NCBI GenBank assembly: GCA_947493945.1
Contig: CANLSR010000004.1
Coordinates: 138,748 to 202,747, forward strand
Length of the DNA: 64,000 nt
Direction: 5' to 3'
From: an uncultured bacterium
GTDB lineage: Bacteria > Bacteroidota > Rhodothermia > Rhodothermales > Rubricoccaceae
A program made the position numbers and the translations under genes. The notes beneath the pieces are model-generated. The model made no database searches and was not told where the DNA came from. It saw only the letters and a program-made list of their open reading frames with translations. Of the stretch, positions 2,818 through 60,773 are shown in pieces (within the stretch, counting starts at the first letter, position 1; every line of letters starts with the position of its first letter).

Positions 2818-3255
2818 CTAGAAGTCGATGGCGATCAACTCGACCGACTCGCCGCCCGGGCCCCGGACAAAGCTGTAGCGGCACGGCACGGGCGGGTCGC
2901 CCTCCAGCACGAAGTCCTCGGGTCCCTCCTCCAGCGCCGCGCCGGCGTCGACGGCGCGCCGGGTCGCGTCGTCGCAGTCGGCCACGTGCAGCGCGAGGTG
3001 GAACAGCGCCGGACCGCCCGGCATCGGGCCGCCGGCGGCGTCGGGTCCGGCGTCGGTCGGCGAGAACAGCTCGACGTAGGTCCCGTCGCCGGTGTCCAGC
3101 ATGACCACGGTGTGGCCCGGCTCCTGGAACCGCAGCCGCTCGACGCACCCCAGCGCGTCGACGTAGAACTGCAGGCTCGCGTCGAGGTCGCGGGCCTCGA
3201 CGGCGACGTGGTGGATCCCGCCGCCGCCCAGCTTGGCGTTGAGCCCGCGCCTCAC
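2818..3255 (-). CDS. VOC (glyoxalase/bleomycin-resistance/dioxygenase) family protein
   Basis: The C-terminal part of track ORF 2818..3780. IHHVAVEARDLDASLQFYVDALG...VELF...HLALHV is a typical VOC beta-alpha-beta-beta-beta module. The GTG at 3255 overlaps the stop of the upstream gene (GTGA). Confidence 0.8.
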   Translation of the reverse strand: MRRGLNAKLGGGGIHHVAVEARDLDASLQFYVDALGCVERLRFQEPGHTVVMLDTGDGTYVELFSPTDAGPDAAGGPMPGGPALFHLALHVADCDDATRRAVDAGAALEEGPEDFVLEGDPPVPCRYSFVRGPGGESVELIAIDF

Positions 3256-14069: not shown

Positions 14070-16565
14070 TCAGTAGAGGCCGACGGGGTCGACGTCGAGG
14101 TTGACGCGGTGGCCCGACGGCATCCGCACGCTGGCCTCGGCCGCCTCGACGACGGCCGCCAGGACGGACGCCGGCAGCGTGCGCGGGGCCTTGACGATGA
14201 TCTGGAACCGCCACCACTTTTTGATCCGCCCGATCAGCGCCGGGATCGGCCCCAGCACGTCGACGCCGGCCACCCTGCCCGCCTCGGTACGGAGCGCCGC
14301 GCCCCAGCGCTCGGCCAGCTGGCGGGTCGAGCCCTCGTGCGGTCCCTTGACCTCGACGCCGATCATCCGGCCGTACGGCGGGTAGCCCAGGGCCAGCCGC
14401 TCCGCGAGCTCGCCGACGGCGAAGCCGTGGAAGTCGTGCGCCAGGGCGTACTGGATGGCGGGGTGCTCCGGGTTGCGGGTCTGGAGCAGCACCTCGCCTT
14501 CGAGCTCGTGGCGCCCGGCGCGGCCGGCCACCTGGGCCAGCAGCTGGAACGTCCGCTCGGCGGCGCGGAAGTCGGGCAGCAGCATCCCGGTGTCGGCCTC
14601 GACCACGCCCACCAGCGTCACGCGCGGGAAGTCGAGGCCCTTGGCCACCATCTGGGTGCCCAAGAGGATGTCGGCGTCGCCTCGGCCGAAGGCGTCCAGG
14701 ATCTTGCGGTGGGCGCCCCGGCGCGAGGTGGTGTCGAGGTCCATCCGCAGCACGCGGGCCGTGGGGAACACCTCGGCGATCTCGTCCTCGACGCGCTGGG
14801 TGCCGGCGCCCAGCATCCTGAGGTCGTCGGCGCCGCAGTCGGGGCACGGGTGGGGCACGTGCTGCGCCCAGCCGCAGTAGTGGCACCGCATCCGCCCCCC
14901 GCCCGGGCCGCCCTTGTGGACGGTGAGCGTGACGGCGCAGTGGGGGCACGTCGGCGTCCAGCCGCAGTCCTCGCACGTCAGCACCGGCGCGAAGCCGCGG
15001 CGGTTTTGCAGCAAGATGGTCTGCTCGCCTTTCTGCAAACGGTCCTCCATGGCCAGCCGCAGCTCGTGGCTCAGCGCCCCCTTGAGCCGGCGCACCTTCT
15101 TCTCGCGCGCCAGGTCCAGCACGCGGACCGGCGGCAGCGGCGCCGGCTGGCGGAGCGTGCCGCCAGCGGCGCGGACGGGCACGCGCTCGGGCATCTCCAG
15201 CCGCGTGTACTTGCCGGCGTTGGCGTTGGCGACGGACTCCATCGACGGCGTGGCGCTGCCCAGCACGCACACGGCGCCGGCCCGGTGGGCGCGCATCACG
15301 GCCACGTCGCGGGCGTGGTAGCGCGGCGCCGGGTCGAACTGCTTGTAGCTCGCCTCGTGCTCCTCGTCGACCACGATGAGGCCGATGTTTTCGAGCGGCG
15401 CGAACACCGCCGAGCGCGGGCCGATGACGATGGGGTAGACGCCGTCGCGGATGCGGGTCCAGGCGTCGAGCCGCTCGCCGGCGCTCATGCGGCTGTGCAG
15501 GACCGCCACGCGGTCGCCAAAGTGGGACCGGAAGCGGCGGACGGTCTGGGGCGTGAGCGCGATCTCGGGGACGAGCACGATCGCCGTCCGCCCCAGCGCG
15601 AGGGTGGCGCGCAGGGCGCGGAGGTAGACCTCGGTCTTGCCCGAGCCGGTGACGCCGTGGAGCAGGAACGTCTCGGCCCGGCCGGCGCCGACGGCGTCCA
15701 CGACCGCTTCCAGCGCGCTGACCTGGGCCGGGTGCAAATCCAGGGCCGGCGCCGCGACCGCGACCTCGCCGTCGAGCCCGTCGGCGCGGCGCTCGACCTC
15801 GGCGTCGAACGCCTCCACGAGCCCGCGCGCTTGCAGGCTTTTGACCGTGCTGCTGGCGGCGCCGGTGGCCGAGAGCGCGTCGGCCTGGAGGACGCCGTCG
15901 GCGCCAGGCTGGCCGTCGCCGGCGGCGGCGAGGTACTCCAAAAGCGCCTGCTGCTTGGCGCCCCGGACCGGCTCGGCCTCGCCGGCGCGCTCCGCCAGCC
16001 GCAGGTGGCGGGCGGTCTTGGCACGCGCCCGCGCCTCTTGCACCTCGGCGTCGACGCGGAGCACGCCGGCGGCCTCCATCCGCCGCAACAGGTTCTGGGG
16101 CACCGTCTTGCGGCCGAGCACGTCGGCGATCTGGGCGACGGGGAGTCCGCTCCCGTTCTTCTCGGCGAGCGCGCGCAGGATCTTGCGCCCGCGCGGGTCG
16201 TCGGCCCAGGCGTCGGGCGGGGCGGTGGCGTGGACCACGCGGTGGCCCTCGACCTCGGTGCCGCTGGGCAGCGCCGCCTTGACGGCCTCGCCCCAGGCGC
16301 ACAGGTAGTAGTCGGCGGTCCACCGCGTCAGCGCCAGCAGCTCGGGCGTGAGCGCGGGCCGGGCGTCCAGGACGTCGTGGAGCGGCTTGAGCCCCTCGGC
16401 GCTCCCCTCGACCCGCTCGGCGACGACGCCGGTGATCTGGCGCCGCCCGAACGGGACCAGCACCCGGGCGCCGGCCACGGCCTCGGCCTCCATGCCCGCC
16501 GGCACGCGGTAGGTGTAGACGCCCGCGACGGACGTGAGCGGGACGACGTGGGCGAGCGCGGGCAT
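14070..16565 (-). CDS. priA: primosomal protein N' (replication restart helicase PriA)
   Basis: 831 aa. Walker A GVTGSGKTEVY, DEEH box, Cys-rich zinc region CEDCGWTPTCPHC...CHYCGW...CPDCG. Confidence 0.95.
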   Translation of the reverse strand: MPALAHVVPLTSVAGVYTYRVPAGMEAEAVAGARVLVPFGRRQITGVVAERVEGSAEGLKPLHDVLDARPALTPELLALTRWTADYYLCAWGEAVKAALPSGTEVEGHRVVHATAPPDAWADDPRGRKILRALAEKNGSGLPVAQIADVLGRKTVPQNLLRRMEAAGVLRVDAEVQEARARAKTARHLRLAERAGEAEPVRGAKQQALLEYLAAAGDGQPGADGVLQADALSATGAASSTVKSLQARGLVEAFDAEVERRADGLDGEVAVAAPALDLHPAQVSALEAVVDAVGAGRAETFLLHGVTGSGKTEVYLRALRATLALGRTAIVLVPEIALTPQTVRRFRSHFGDRVAVLHSRMSAGERLDAWTRIRDGVYPIVIGPRSAVFAPLENIGLIVVDEEHEASYKQFDPAPRYHARDVAVMRAHRAGAVCVLGSATPSMESVANANAGKYTRLEMPERVPVRAAGGTLRQPAPLPPVRVLDLAREKKVRRLKGALSHELRLAMEDRLQKGEQTILLQNRRGFAPVLTCEDCGWTPTCPHCAVTLTVHKGGPGGGRMRCHYCGWAQHVPHPCPDCGADDLRMLGAGTQRVEDEIAEVFPTARVLRMDLDTTSRRGAHRKILDAFGRGDADILLGTQMVAKGLDFPRVTLVGVVEADTGMLLPDFRAAERTFQLLAQVAGRAGRHELEGEVLLQTRNPEHPAIQYALAHDFHGFAVGELAERLALGYPPYGRMIGVEVKGPHEGSTRQLAERWGAALRTEAGRVAGVDVLGPIPALIGRIKKWWRFQIIVKAPRTLPASVLAAVVEAAEASVRMPSGHRVNLDVDPVGLY

Positions 16566-16609
16566 GGGTCCAAGCTAGCCCGACCGCGGCGCCGGTCCCG
16601 GGCCCGCCG

Positions 16610-16638
16610 CCCGCTGGCGGGGCGCCTCCGCCAGCGGG
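16610..16638. repeat. REP family 1 (CCCGCTGGCGG-loop-CCGCCAGCGGG)
   Basis: 11-bp perfect stem, 15 nt downstream of the RAYT stop. Confidence 0.85.
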
Positions 16639-16652
16639 CGGCGCCCGTGGGT

Positions 16653-17210
16653 TCAGGCGCGGTGGCCGTCGCGGCGCTCGCCGCGCGAGGCCCAGCGCGC
16701 GGGGTTCTCGGCGACGGAGCGGCGGATGGCCTCGGCCTCGCGGTCGGTCCGGACGACGCGGTCGTAGTAGCCGCGCTGCCATACCGTGCCGACCGTCGCC
16801 ATTCCACGCCTACGTACGCCGCGGGTGACGGCGCCCTTGTACCCACGGATGACCGCGCCGACGGATCTTGATGGCGACCCAAACCGCCGATTCTCGCTCG
16901 TAGGGGCGTATTGCAATACGCCCCTACCGCTGCCTGGCGGGACCGCGGTGGCACCCGGCTCGGCAATCCCGAACAGCAGGTGCACATGGTCGGGCATCAC
17001 CACGAACGCGTCCAGGATCACGTCGGGCCAGACGACACCCGTCTGCATCCACTCGTTGTGGGCGATCTGCCCGGCGGCCGACCGCTGCATCTGACCGCCC
17101 ACGACCGTTCACAACAGAGGGCGCCGTTCCGCCGTGCAGACGGTCACGAAATGCAGCCCGCCGCGGTAGTCGTGGGCGTGCAGGCGGACCGAACGGCGGC
17201 GGAGCGGCAT
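16653..17210 (-). pseudogene. REP-associated tyrosine transposase (RAYT, IS200/IS605 Y1 family) interrupted by an in-frame TGA
   Basis: From the ATG at 17210 the frame reads MPLRRRSVRLHAHDYRGGLHFVTVCTAERRPLL, then TGA (17111-17109). The same frame continues TVVGGQMQRS...FVVMPDHVHLL (HUH motif)...WQRGYYDRVVR (catalytic Tyr region). The track ORF 16653..17102 is only the distal part. Confidence 0.8.
16900..16927. repeat. 28-bp perfect palindrome inside the RAYT ORF (GTAGGGGCGTATTGCAATACGCCCCTAC)
   Basis: Self-complementary as read, with an AT-rich core in a very GC-rich context. It encodes GVLQYAPT between the HUH and Tyr motifs. Confidence 0.9.
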
Positions 17211-17252
17211 GCCCGACAGACCCCGCCGCGCCCGTCCGCCCAACCCCGCCGC

Positions 17253-17275
17253 CCGCTGGCGGACGTTCTCCGACC
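17253..17275. repeat. REP family 1, partial copy (intact left arm, decayed right arm)
   Basis: CCGCTGGCGGAcgttcTCCGaCC. Confidence 0.4.
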
Positions 17276-17297
17276 CGCGACGGCAGGCTTCACCTCG

Positions 17298-17322
17298 CGC
17301 TGGCGGACGGCGCCCGCCAGCG
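17298..17322. repeat. REP family 1
   Basis: CGCTGGCGGacggcgcCCGCCAGCG. It lies between the RAYT start and the stop of the next gene, whose stop codon follows immediately. Confidence 0.85.
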
Positions 17323-17324
17323 GG

Positions 17325-18254
17325 TCACTGGCAGGCGACGGCGCTCCAGTTGCTGTGGCCGCGGCCGGGCTGGCAGCGCACCTGACGGCCGGCCTGGACC
17401 AGGTCCCACGTGTCGCCGACGCGGGTGTAGGTCAGCCGCAGCCGCTCGTCGCGGACCGAGTCGTCGCGCAGGTCCAGGAGCGTCACCAGCGCGACGGCCT
17501 CGTACGGCGACTCCGACAGCACGTCGACCGTCGTCCGGCCGGCGTCGTCGCTGTAGCGCCGGGCGATGGCCTGGGCAGCGACCCCGGGCGCAGACGCGGA
17601 GTTGAGGCCGCGGAGCACGTCGTCGGCGGGGGCGAACGCGCCCAGGTCGGAGGCGCGTGTCGGCGCCGGGCCTCGGGTGCCCGACGTGAGCAGGCGCAGG
17701 CCCGAGACGATCTGCGCGCCCTCGTCCAGCGACACCGGCCGGCACCCGCCCTCGGTGTCGCTCAGGAACAGGGCCGCGGCGCCGTCGAGCTCGATAAAGT
17801 CCGACACGACCGTGTTGATCCCCCAGACCTGGGCGCTCGTCGCGTCCGGCACGTCGGCGGCCCGGTACACCAGGACCGTCTGGCCGAGGTCGGCGATGTG
17901 GGCCTTGGTGAAGACGAGCGGCAGCTCCGGCCCGCCGAACCCGTCGTTGCCCCCGCTCACCTCGAAGCAGGAGCCGTCGGAGCGGCGGTAGCCCAGGGCG
18001 TAGCTGGCGCCCGTGCCGACGCGCCCGGCCTCGAAGTAGGCGAGCTCGAACGCGTCGAGGACGGCCGGGACCAAGACCGGCACGCCGAGCGCGAGGAGCT
18101 GATCCGACTGGTCGTCGGTGAGCCCCCGGACCTTCACGTCGTTCCCCTCGGGGAACGCGTTGGGGGACAGGTTCGAGCAGGCGGAGACCGCCAGCAGGAC
18201 GGAGGCGAGGAGGGCGGGCGCGGTCAGGTGTCTCGCGGGTCGGGTCGGAAACAT
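17325..18254 (-). CDS. hypothetical lipoprotein
   Basis: 309 aa. Lipobox-type signal LLASVLLAVSAC. GC3-rich frame. No family recognised. Confidence 0.6.
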   Translation of the reverse strand: MFPTRPARHLTAPALLASVLLAVSACSNLSPNAFPEGNDVKVRGLTDDQSDQLLALGVPVLVPAVLDAFELAYFEAGRVGTGASYALGYRRSDGSCFEVSGGNDGFGGPELPLVFTKAHIADLGQTVLVYRAADVPDATSAQVWGINTVVSDFIELDGAAALFLSDTEGGCRPVSLDEGAQIVSGLRLLTSGTRGPAPTRASDLGAFAPADDVLRGLNSASAPGVAAQAIARRYSDDAGRTTVDVLSESPYEAVALVTLLDLRDDSVRDERLRLTYTRVGDTWDLVQAGRQVRCQPGRGHSNWSAVACQ

Positions 18255-19866: not shown

Positions 19867-19927
19867 GCGATCGCCGGGAGCGGGGTAGGCGCGGCCCGCC
19901 CGCAGGCGTACGCGTGTCAAGAGGCCG

Positions 19928-19958
19928 TCGCGCTGGCGGACGCGCTCCGCCAGCGCGA
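19928..19958. repeat. REP family 1 (13-bp stem TCGCGCTGGCGGA / TCCGCCAGCGCGA, loop CGCGC)
   Basis: Perfect hairpin between the convergent small ORF and tkt. Confidence 0.9.
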
Positions 19959-19964
19959 CGCGAG

Positions 19965-28039: not shown

Positions 28040-28062
28040 GCTGGCGGAGGCCGTCCGCCAGC
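28040..28062. repeat. REP family 1 (loop GGCCG)
   Basis: GCTGGCGGAggccgTCCGCCAGC, 12 nt downstream of the nuoG stop within the nuoG-nuoH spacer. 22 nt are identical to the copy at 46850. Confidence 0.85.
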
Positions 28063-31864: not shown

Positions 31865-32527
31865 CTAGTGGGTTCGGATGCGGTGGAGCGGGGCCGGGGC
31901 GGCGGCCTGCTCCTGGTCAATAATGCGGTCGATCAATAGGTCCGCCAGCCGGACGGACTCGTCGAGCTGGACGCCCTCGTCCTCGGCGTCGGACAGCTCG
32001 CGGAGCGCCTGGTAGATCCACAGCCGCCGCCGCGTCGCGCGGTAGCTGGAGACCATCGTGGCCGCCATGCTCGCCGCTAGCGCGAGGCCGAGCCCGATGT
32101 CGAGCCCGGCCGACCACGTTAGTGGGTCGCCCAGGTGCGTGAGGACCTTGCTCCAGACCAAGGCAAGGTAGAACGACCCGACGAGCCCGACGAGCCACGG
32201 GCGCTTGCGGAGCTGGCGCTCCATCTTGGCCGTCTCGCGGTCGATGAAGGCCACGTCCAACGTCTTGAACAGCTTGTGCCGCTCTTGGTAGGAGATCCAG
32301 GACTTGCCGCCCTTGTGCATCCGCTCGAGTTCTTTGAGCAGGACCGCCTTGACCCGCCGTTCGCGGCGCGTGAGCCCGCTGCCGGTCGGCGCGCTCGCCC
32401 CGCTAGCTGGCGCTGTCCCTAGCGGGGTGGCGGACGGGGTCAGGCGGGACGAGAGCGGGCCGCGCACGTCCAGCGCCTGGGCGTCTCGGATGCGGCGGTC
32501 GGCCACGGTGCGGAGGGGGGCGGCCAT
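31865..32527 (-). CDS. hypothetical 2-TM protein, paralog 1, embedded in the nuo operon
   Basis: 220 aa. It shares an N-terminal ADRRIR..LDVRGP motif, an LT..ERRV helix, two TM segments and a C-terminal IYQALREL..LIDR with the gene immediately upstream. TGATG overlap with that gene, and a 4-nt gap to nuoF. Confidence 0.6.
   Translation of the reverse strand: MAAPLRTVADRRIRDAQALDVRGPLSSRLTPSATPLGTAPASGASAPTGSGLTRRERRVKAVLLKELERMHKGGKSWISYQERHKLFKTLDVAFIDRETAKMERQLRKRPWLVGLVGSFYLALVWSKVLTHLGDPLTWSAGLDIGLGLALAASMAATMVSSYRATRRRLWIYQALRELSDAEDEGVQLDESVRLADLLIDRIIDQEQAAAPAPLHRIRTH
32398..32436. repeat. palindromic element family 2 (CCCCGCTAG-loop-CTAGCGGGG + TGGCGGACG), intragenic
   Basis: 39 nt, the exact reverse complement of 33210-33248. 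Read in frame as ATPLGTAPASG in paralog 1. Confidence 0.9.
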
Positions 32528-33372
32528 CAGCTCCGTACCCGCTGGCGGCGGCCGGCGACGGGCGTGGCGCCGACCTCGTCAGGGGCGACGCCAGCTAGCC
32601 GGTCGATAAGCCGGTCGGCCTGCTGGAGGGCGCCGGAGACCGGCGCGTCGTCCACGAGCAGCGCCAGCTCGCGCAAGGCGCGGTAGATGGCCAGCCGTTG
32701 CGGCCCAGCCGGCGTTCCGACCCGGCGCGAGGCCAGCGAGACGGCCGCCACGACGGCGAGGACGAGGAAGAGGCCCGTCTCGAACAGGGGCTTGCCCGTC
32801 GCGAGCGCCAGCGGGAAGGCGGCCCCGAGTGCGAGCGCCAGCGCTACCCAGCGGGCGCCCTTGAACGACGGACGAGCCTCCATCTTGGCGATCTCGCCGT
32901 CGACAAACGAGAGGTCGAGGGTCGCCAGGCGCTTTTTCTCGGCGTAGCTCAACCCGTCGCTCACGCCGTCGCGGGCGTTGTCGATGGCGAGCGTGTCGAG
33001 CAGGATCCGGTGGACGCGGCGCTCGTCGGCGGTCAGCCCGGAGAGCGTGGCCGGCGGCTCGGGGGGGGCAGGCCGAGGCTTCCGCGTCGGCCACGGCGCG
33101 GCGTCGAATGGCTTGACCACGCGCGGCGCCGCCTTCGACCGGCTAGCGGTTGGCGCCGGCGTGGTGTCGGGGGCCGCCGTCTCGTACAGGTCGGCCGTCT
33201 CGCCCGGCTCGTCCGCCACCCCGCTAGGGACAGCGCCAGCTAGCGGGGCGGGCGGCACCGCGATGCCGGCCCGGCCCAACGCCTGCGACACCGGCCCGCG
33301 CACGTCGAGGCCCGGCGCCGCCCGGAGGGAGGCGGCGCGGATCCTGCGGTCGGCGGCCAGGCGGCTGCTCAT
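32527..33372 (-). CDS. hypothetical 2-TM protein, paralog 2, embedded in the nuo operon
   Basis: 281 aa with the same architecture as paralog 1 plus a Pro-rich insert. It starts 22 nt after the nuoE stop. Confidence 0.6.
   Translation of the reverse strand: MSSRLAADRRIRAASLRAAPGLDVRGPVSQALGRAGIAVPPAPLAGAVPSGVADEPGETADLYETAAPDTTPAPTASRSKAAPRVVKPFDAAPWPTRKPRPAPPEPPATLSGLTADERRVHRILLDTLAIDNARDGVSDGLSYAEKKRLATLDLSFVDGEIAKMEARPSFKGARWVALALALGAAFPLALATGKPLFETGLFLVLAVVAAVSLASRRVGTPAGPQRLAIYRALRELALLVDDAPVSGALQQADRLIDRLAGVAPDEVGATPVAGRRQRVRS
33210..33248. repeat. palindromic element family 2, intragenic, opposite orientation
   Basis: CGTCCGCCA + CCCCGCTAGGGACAGCGCCAGCTAGCGGGG. Read in frame as PLAGAVPSGVAD in paralog 2. 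Confidence 0.9.
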
Positions 33373-38906: not shown

Positions 38907-38930
38907 CGCTGGCGGACGCGCTCCGCCAGC
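38907..38930. repeat. REP family 1 (loop CGCGC)
   Basis: CGCTGGCGGAcgcgcTCCGCCAGC, 18 nt downstream of the purB stop. The core is identical to the copies at 19931 and 54791. Confidence 0.85.
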
Positions 38931-41693: not shown

Positions 41694-41726
41694 GCGCCCG
41701 CCCTCCCTGGAGGGCGGGCGCTTTTG
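41694..41726 (+). terminator. Rho-independent terminator of the S8 peptidase gene
   Basis: GCGCCCGCCCTCC / GGAGGGCGGGCGC, a 12-13 bp stem followed by TTTTG, 27 nt after the stop. Confidence 0.8.
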
Positions 41727-44897: not shown

Positions 44898-44918
44898 CGC
44901 TGGCGGAGCCCGCCAGCG
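44898..44918. repeat. REP family 1 (short loop)
   Basis: CGCTGGCGGagcCCGCCAGCG, 8 nt after the stop at 44890. An extra right-arm copy lies at 44950-44961. Confidence 0.75.
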
Positions 44919-46847: not shown

Positions 46848-46874
46848 CCGCTGGCGGAGGCCGTCCGCCAGTGG
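46848..46874. repeat. REP family 1 (loop GGCCG)
   Basis: CCGCTGGCGGAggccgTCCGCCAGtGG, between convergent ribBA and the GH-like gene. Confidence 0.85.
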
Positions 46875-48026: not shown

Positions 48027-48053
48027 CGACTGGCGGACGGCCTCCGCCAGCGG
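48027..48053. repeat. REP family 1
   Basis: CCGaCTGGCGGAcggccTCCGCCAGCGG, abutting the stop of the quinone oxidoreductase gene (48055). Confidence 0.85.
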
Positions 48054-54790: not shown

Positions 54791-54815
54791 CGCTGGCGGA
54801 CGCGCTCCGCCAGCG
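54791..54815. repeat. REP family 1 (loop CGCGC)
   Basis: CGCTGGCGGAcgcgcTCCGCCAGCG in the ACAD-hydrolase spacer. 25 nt are identical to 19931-19955. Confidence 0.9.
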
Positions 54816-56063: not shown

Positions 56064-56191
56064 GGGGGCGGGGCGCGGGGTGGGGGAACCTAAGCCCCAC
56101 CCCGCGCGGTGTTCGGGTCCGAGACGGCCCCGGCCCGGCGCCGCTCAAGTGCCGCCCGGCTCCGCCGATACCCGAGAGACAACTCCCAGAC

Positions 56192-60745: not shown

Positions 60746-60773
60746 CCGACTGGCGGAGAACGTCCGCCAGCGG
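60746..60773. repeat. REP family 1
   Basis: CCGaCTGGCGGAgaacgTCCGCCAGCGG in the MFS / oxidoreductase spacer. Confidence 0.85.

Follow-up and report, generated by a model that had tools for sequence, protein, structure and literature searches.

A probable decayed REP-associated tyrosine transposase gene with an in-frame palindrome in a Rubricoccaceae-like genome

We examined a gene for a REP-associated tyrosine transposase (RAYT, or TnpA-Y1; REP, repetitive extragenic palindrome) in a 64,000-nucleotide stretch of contig CANLSR010000004.1 from an uncultured bacterium of the Rubricoccaceae. This whole stretch, referred to here as the window, has a G+C content of 72.9%. In the active TnpAREP of Escherichia coli, the histidines of the HUH motif and the Asn of a Y-x-x-x-N-P motif hold a metal ion, and a W-Q...R region recognizes the 5′ foot (GTAG) of the REP hairpin on single-stranded DNA. 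Cleavage and rejoining of the DNA are carried out by the Tyr of Y-x-x-x-N-P, via a phosphotyrosine link. In this enzyme, Y115 is the catalytic tyrosine and N119 a metal ligand (Messing et al. 2012, PMC3479197), and W94, Q95, and R104 have been implicated in GTAG recognition (PMC6006769). Single-copy, vertically inherited behavior has been described for RAYTs (PMC5581495). An in-frame REP between the HuH motif and the Y has been described as unique to TnpA-Y1 subclass 2.4 (Quentin et al. 2018, PMC6006769), which corresponds to RAYT group 4 in Bertels et al. 2017. The "double-foot" REPs of this subclass, described as unique to it as well, run from 5′ GT[AG]G to C[TC]AC 3′, and the base of their stems consists of three G-C pairs. 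The key motifs of the subclass are NH[IFV]H, WQ, and YIxNNP (PMC6006769, Table 1); the supplement of the same paper gives GTAGGGGCGTATTGCATACGCCC as a subclass 2.4 REP.

Compared with these systems, the window RAYT most resembles subclass 2.4. The two have in common W-Q and x-x-x-N-P, similar lengths (~185 aa in the window; subclass median, 194 aa), a variable HuH-to-W-Q insertion that consists of an in-frame double-foot REP (GTAG...CTAC, with three G-C pairs), low copy number, and occurrence in Bacteroidota-related phyla. The window RAYT departs from the subclass in reading DHVH rather than NH[IFV]H, in being dead (Ser for the catalytic Tyr, and a premature stop), and in having non-GTAG palindromes, not canonical REPs, as its immediate flanks. 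The E. coli TnpAREP (RayT; PDB 4ER8; subclass 2.2) has the same HUH/Y1 fold, with equivalents of its HUH motif, W94/Q95/R104, and N119 in the window RAYT, and is likewise single-copy, chromosomally fixed, and bracketed by palindromes. Sequence similarity to it is weak (profile E = 7.7e-5), and it differs in lacking an in-gene REP, in having flanking REPs with a GTAG foot, and in being intact. The TnpA of IS200/IS605 (subclass 1.1) shares with the window family the HUH and Tyr catalytic core and the recognition of single-stranded hairpins, but its Y motif is Y-x-x-x-Q rather than N-P. IS200 elements are multi-copy and near-identical, with subterminal hairpins, whereas the window RAYT is syntenic across genera.

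The gene occupies positions 16653-17210 of the minus strand. Its frame runs from ATG (17210-17208) to TGA (16655-16653), 185 codons plus the stop (186 with it), and translates as MPLRRRSVRLHAHDYRGGLHFVTVCTAERRPLL-stop-TVVGG...MPDHVHLLFG...GRGVLQYAPT...VWQRGYYDRVVR...AIRRSVAENPARW...HRA-stop, the internal stop being a TGA at codon 34. The motifs that the original prediction had quoted for a REP-associated Y1 (HUH) transposase (DYRGGLHFVTVCT, MPDHVHLL, and WQRGYYDRVVR) are each present in this translation, and profile searches bear out the assignment. The repaired protein, given Gly at codon 34, exceeds the curated cutoff of Pfam Y1_Tnp (PF01797; 24.9 bits, cutoff 23). Its best NCBIfam match is REP_Tyr_transpos (NF047646; 54.4 bits, E = 1.2e-14), a score under the equivalog cutoff of 80, and it scores 21.9 bits against NCBIfam transpos_IS200 (cutoff 55). 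A protein collection search returned 331 homologs at E ≤ 1e-3. Those most similar to it (69-77% identity) are from assemblies of marine metagenomes, and the nearest named relatives are Rubrivirga and Rubricoccus; among the matches listed by an alignment-based contig scan, the relatives were distant (≤45% identity). No second Y1 gene was found within the 64-kb window.

Translation confirmed the in-frame TGA that had been reported at codon 34 (17109-17111, minus strand). In an alignment of 111 homologs, each of at least 160 aa, from which all conservation figures given here derive, this position is Gly in 97% of sequences and lies inside an L-F-G motif, as the original prediction had stated of related proteins. 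The preceding codon 33 (17112-17114, minus strand) is TTG (Leu) at a position that is Phe in 87% of homologs. This is a mild change, and 13 homologs likewise have Leu. Syntenic orthologs on two contigs of related bacteria read TTC GGC GAG (contig L082) and TTT GGG GAG (L084), compared with TTG TGA ACG in the window, which at the TGA thus differs from its ortholog by five changes inside six adjacent bases rather than by one.

The catalytic tyrosine is also lost. Codon 165 (16716-16718, minus strand), the Y of Y-x-x-x-N-P, is TCC (Ser) in the context AIRRSVAENP. The position is Tyr in 111 of 111 homologs and Ser in none. The family profile places the motif on Y115-I-Y-I-N119-P of E. coli TnpAREP (4ER8), with N169 on N119. 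Orthologs read Y[VI]xxNP here, with E, D, A, or H before NP. The window retains N169 and P170, and with Ser at the Y the class 2 signature Y-x-x-x-N-P is broken. Logan contigs of related populations carry T where the window has G at +16717, so that their codon is TAC (Tyr), at a depth of 11.5/11.5 in run X2 and 3.25/3.25 in run X5. The segment WQRGYYDRVVR, which had been taken for the Tyr region, is present as described. It proved to be the W-Q...R motif (W144, Q145, and R154; 16749-16781, minus strand), aligned by the profile to W94, Q95, and R104 of the E. coli enzyme, the catalytic Tyr being that of Y-x-x-x-N-P. Codon 20 (17151-17153, minus strand), within strand beta-1 (GLYFVT), shows a third unusual change: it is CAT (His), where 94% of homologs have Tyr. 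The HUH motif (H75-V76-H77 in MPDHVH; 16980-16988, minus strand), of which both His positions are kept in 99-100% of homologs, is intact, as are W-Q and N-P, and the gene contains no frameshift. The claim of an otherwise intact frame therefore holds for the frame itself, not for function, given the Ser at codon 165. Because Tyr165 is replaced in addition to the TGA, the gene has two or more disabling lesions; even if the TGA by itself were a sequencing error, function would not be restored.

Between H77 and W144, the gene carries a perfect 28-nt palindrome, GTAGGGGCGTATTGCAATACGCCCCTAC (16900-16927), with a 12-bp stem and a 4-nt loop (DNA fold z = -5.0). In frame with the gene, it encodes GVLQYAPT (codons 95-104, the ends being partial) and parses as GTAG-GGG-CGTAT-TGCA-ATACG-CCC-CTAC, with the double foot and the three G-C pairs at the stem base. 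Its DNA sequence is identical or one base off in six contigs of relatives (L082, L083, L084, L001, L208, and L205), and the coding sequence around it varies freely. Its codons GTA, TTG, CAA, and CCT are atypical of a genome with ~95% G+C at third codon positions. The 28-mer is common to RAYT genes whose proteins are 58-70% identical, and to a Nitrospinota gene at 43%. A perfect hairpin with GT[AG]G feet occurs at the in-gene position in 39 of the 59 related loci that were parsed, 10 of which repeat the stem of the in-gene hairpin in the flanks. The 28-mer is carried in frame in a tolerant loop of the RAYT open reading frame (ORF).

Exact copies of the 28-mer are also present in at least 120 metagenome contigs (L085-L204) of 31-69% G+C with unrelated flanks. 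These copies are mostly extragenic: 8 of the 126 occurrences fall inside a recognizable RAYT ORF, and 10 of the 120 contigs listed have a RAYT-like gene that contains or adjoins the 28-mer. One REP sequence is therefore common, letter for letter, to very different organisms. A full-text literature search for the 28-mer found no paper.

In Rubricoccus marinus (L207, 9793-10551), the RAYT has no in-gene REP. Both of its flanks carry GTAG REPs (GTAG-GGGCGTAT) with the same GGGGCGTAT stem as the in-gene REP, nested within outer GGCCTCTGGCG palindromes. In Rubrivirga sp. SAORIC476 (L208, 8572-10100), the in-gene 28-mer is present, and the flanks are of another palindrome type (GCCGCCTCGG...CCGAGGCGGGC). 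Between these two genera the outer palindromes vary and the GTAG stem is constant. Since the R. marinus flanks repeat the in-gene stem, the GTAG palindrome is the canonical REP type of this enzyme lineage.

Intact RAYT genes of related Rubricoccaceae are present at the same place in L082 (P0004, 185 aa) and L084 (P0003, 190 aa), which share with the window the gene order ribulose-phosphate 3-epimerase (rpe), a ~300-aa lipoprotein-like gene, RAYT, and priA. Rubrivirga sp. SAORIC476 (L208) also has an intact ortholog, immediately upstream of its priA. Identity between the window and L082 or L084 is 84-87% for PriA and ~70% for RAYT. This synteny fits a low-copy, vertically inherited RAYT, unlike insertion sequences. 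A paralog, P0005, occupies a different locus on L083, from the same sample as L082 and at similar coverage (110x and 116x, respectively). Relatives thus probably carry two or more RAYT copies, which makes another copy elsewhere in the source genome plausible. Directly 5′ of the RAYT start is a leader of ~35 nt (17211-17243, minus strand; GGTTG.GCGGA.GGG.CGCG.CGGGTCT) that RAYT copies from separate genomic places (the window, L084, L083, and L001) have kept in common. The duplicated or moved unit therefore takes in the leader, which could be a promoter or regulatory site. The copy on L001 lacks ~55 nt of its N-terminal coding region (2935-3005), which breaks the frame; that contig has a coverage of only 2x, and the deletion could be an assembly error. 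Further truncated RAYT homologs are P0052, P0058, and P0114. Decay of RAYT copies may be common in the clade.

We consider it very probable that a vertically inherited class 2 RAYT, best fitted by subclass 2.4, has recently been inactivated at this locus in a Rubricoccaceae-like host. A recent nonsense mutation had been one of the readings first offered for the TGA, and a TGA at a near-invariant Gly, together with Tyr165Ser, favors inactivation of this kind. Death would be recent because the HUH, W-Q, and N-P motifs are intact, no frameshift has accumulated, and the ratio of nonsynonymous to synonymous substitution rates (dN/dS) for pairs that include the window gene, 0.30-0.40, is barely above that for other pairs (0.27-0.33).

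Several observations count against this interpretation. The TGA and the Ser codon both come from one assembly. Neither dN/dS, which is only weakly suggestive, nor relative branch lengths reveal a clear relaxation, and our case for decay is based on what the lesions are rather than on rate. As for the subclass, the WQ motif matches that of subclass 2.4, but the HuH motif is DHVH, with D and not N, across the whole Rubricoccaceae clade, and the equivalog cutoff of the NCBIfam RAYT family is missed; the assignment to subclass 2.4 therefore rests mainly on the in-gene REP.

The RAYT gene had been described as flanked by family-1 REPs in a classical REPtron arrangement. The palindromes are real and belong to a dispersed family with the core CTGGCGG-N7-CCGCCAG, of which the 64 kb contain 12 exact copies and 16 at no more than one mismatch (0.15 expected from shuffled sequence). 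The extent of the copies required correction. The 3′ palindrome, between the RAYT stop and the priA start, spans 16605-16643, larger than had been reported, and its perfect 16-bp stem closes a loop of 7 nt (z = -3.75). The supposed partial copy on the 5′ side is a degenerate full copy (~17245-17286) whose first part, 17245-17262, is identical to 16603-16620. The outer 5′ palindrome (17298-17322) has a 9-bp stem and begins 3 nt past the stop of the upstream lipoprotein-like gene. Further members are at 19926-19960, 28040-28062, 38908-38930, 44898-44918, 46851-46871, 48030-48050, 54791-54815, and 60750-60770. The family is mostly intergenic, typically 3-20 nt after a stop codon, occupies about a quarter of intergenic gaps, and is multi-copy in related runs. 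Several members start TGA-CCC-GCTGGCGG, and none has a T-run. We tried the CGTC-tagged REP superfamily (Di Nocera 2013) as a home for these palindromes and rejected it; a few copies are preceded by CGTC, but most are not, and the stems lack the defining A/T first positions. An apparent empty site, a joint of 16628 to 17330 in run X2, was also rejected, as the contig ends 22 nt into a REP.

The CTGGCGG palindromes are a genuine, abundant, lineage-specific family whose link to the RAYT is positional only. Of the REPtron claim, the bracketing of the gene by over-represented palindromes stands, but a GT[AG]G foot is absent from the palindromes that flank it, and the in-gene hairpin is the only one in the 64 kb with a GTAG foot, so that none is extragenic. 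Whether the family serves the RAYT as substrate is nearly balanced. It is a serious alternative, to which we give somewhat less than an even chance, that the CTGGCGG palindromes are not substrates at all but 3′-end hairpins (terminators or mRNA stabilizers) or an independently spreading family, found beside the gene on account of their density, the GTAG palindrome being the sole cognate REP. Their missing GT[AG]G foot, the lack of extragenic GTAG REPs in the window, and their recurrence shortly after stop codons throughout the window are as expected on this alternative, as are the orthologous flanks in L084, which have no clear CTGGCGG copies, and the RAYT of R. marinus, which is directly flanked by GTAG REPs with the in-gene stem. 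Against it, CTGGCGG palindromes bracket RAYT on both sides at three distinct genomic places (represented by the window and L082, L083, and L001). If roughly one intergenic gap in four holds a copy, such bracketing is unlikely by chance (we estimate ~0.06 per locus). Moreover, the RAYTs of two other genera also have non-GTAG palindromes at their flanks, of a different kind specific to each genome. However they spread, the CTGGCGG members may act as mRNA 3′-end hairpins.

A further, speculative reading, which we regard as unlikely on present evidence, is that the subclass 2.4 RAYT of Rubricoccaceae keeps its canonical GTAG REP as a single in-ORF "seed", conserved at the level of nucleotides, while genus-specific non-GTAG palindromes proliferate and bracket the gene. 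The palindromes concerned are CTGGCGG in the window, a CCTCGG type in Rubrivirga sp. SAORIC476, and a CCTCTGGCG type in R. marinus. If this were so, either the enzyme clade would mobilize non-GTAG hairpins or the in-gene REP would serve a separate function, for example in autoregulation or in the re-seeding of REP populations after transfer.

The inactivation of the gene itself has rivals that fare less well. That the TGA is a sequencing or assembly error for GGA, and that the gene encodes a full-length RAYT, is improbable. A single G-to-T change at the first base separates GGA (Gly) from TGA, but the orthologs use GGC or GGG, and five of the six neighboring bases differ between TTG TGA ACG and TTT GGG GAG. 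Restoring Gly34 would still leave Ser at position 165 and His in place of Tyr20. Hence an error at the TGA, which had been offered as an explanation, would not by itself rescue activity, and two or three errors, each on a key residue of a 558-nt gene, are unlikely. We sought public runs that hold the source genome and found none (best share, ≤0.11 of sampled words), and no contig of the public runs covers 17092-17223 at 85% or 80% likeness.

We place about as little weight on the possibility that the locus makes a noncatalytic protein of 145-149 aa, started at GTG 17102 or ATG 17090, that binds REPs or other hairpins, as a further step of domestication in which cleavage has been lost. The residual ORF downstream of the TGA (16653-17102, minus strand) is open and retains the HUH, W-Q...R, and N-P motifs, gene callers predict its 145-aa product (P0001), and dN/dS is below 1. 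However, this product lacks the core-sheet strand beta-1, including the conserved GLYFVTVCT, as well as the catalytic Tyr. No homolog (0 of 111) has Ser at the Tyr position, so nothing indicates selection for a Ser variant; the start has no conserved context, and dN/dS reflects a long shared history rather than the time since the lesions. Programmed recoding of the TGA into a full-length protein (as selenocysteine, Trp, or Gly), the tolerated read-through of the original prediction, has next to no claim on belief: the frame does continue on both sides of the TGA, but TGA is the ordinary stop of RAYT itself and of its upstream neighbor, homologs have Gly and never a stop at codon 34, the RNA around the TGA and beyond it shows unremarkable folding (z = -1.9, equaled by 10 of 200 shuffles) with no selenocysteine insertion sequence-like structure, an Rfam search of 16300-17600 gave zero matches, and Tyr165Ser would persist regardless.

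Translation of the gene halts at codon 34, re-initiation at GTG 17102 or ATG 17090 would yield a protein without strand beta-1, and the nucleophile position has Ser in place of Tyr. The product would therefore be expected to be unable to cleave REPs, and REP mobility in the source genome would be either frozen or dependent on a paralog elsewhere.

The window RAYT is an ordinary, decayed member of a described family; the finding is sound, and current understanding of RAYTs is unchanged by it. In annotation, the appropriate label for the locus is RAYT pseudogene rather than 145-aa hypothetical protein or active transposase, and the catalytic Tyr of RAYTs should be sought in Y-x-x-x-N-P, not in the W-Q region. 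The locus also offers a natural comparison, in which a syntenic RAYT is dead in one genome and intact in close relatives, with the same dispersed palindrome family in all. It could reveal whether the loss of a RAYT is followed by decay of the REP populations and whether the non-GTAG palindromes depend on this enzyme at all.

Other hairpins in the window are of separate types. The hairpin at 41694-41721 (GCGCCCGCCCTC-cctg-GAGGGCGGGCGC) is followed by TTTT, resembles an intrinsic terminator, and is unrelated to the REP family, as is the hairpin at 56073-56107, with a 13-bp stem (GCGCGGGGTGGGG-N9-CCCCACCCCGCGC). A pair of 45-nt inverted repeats (32392-32436 and 33210-33254) is 98% complementary, with 773 nt between the arms, and lies within or at the edges of long ORFs rich in G+C at third codon positions. 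Each arm is itself a hairpin (CCCCGCTAG-N12-CTAGCGGGG) of a palindrome type unlike CTGGCGG or GTAG.

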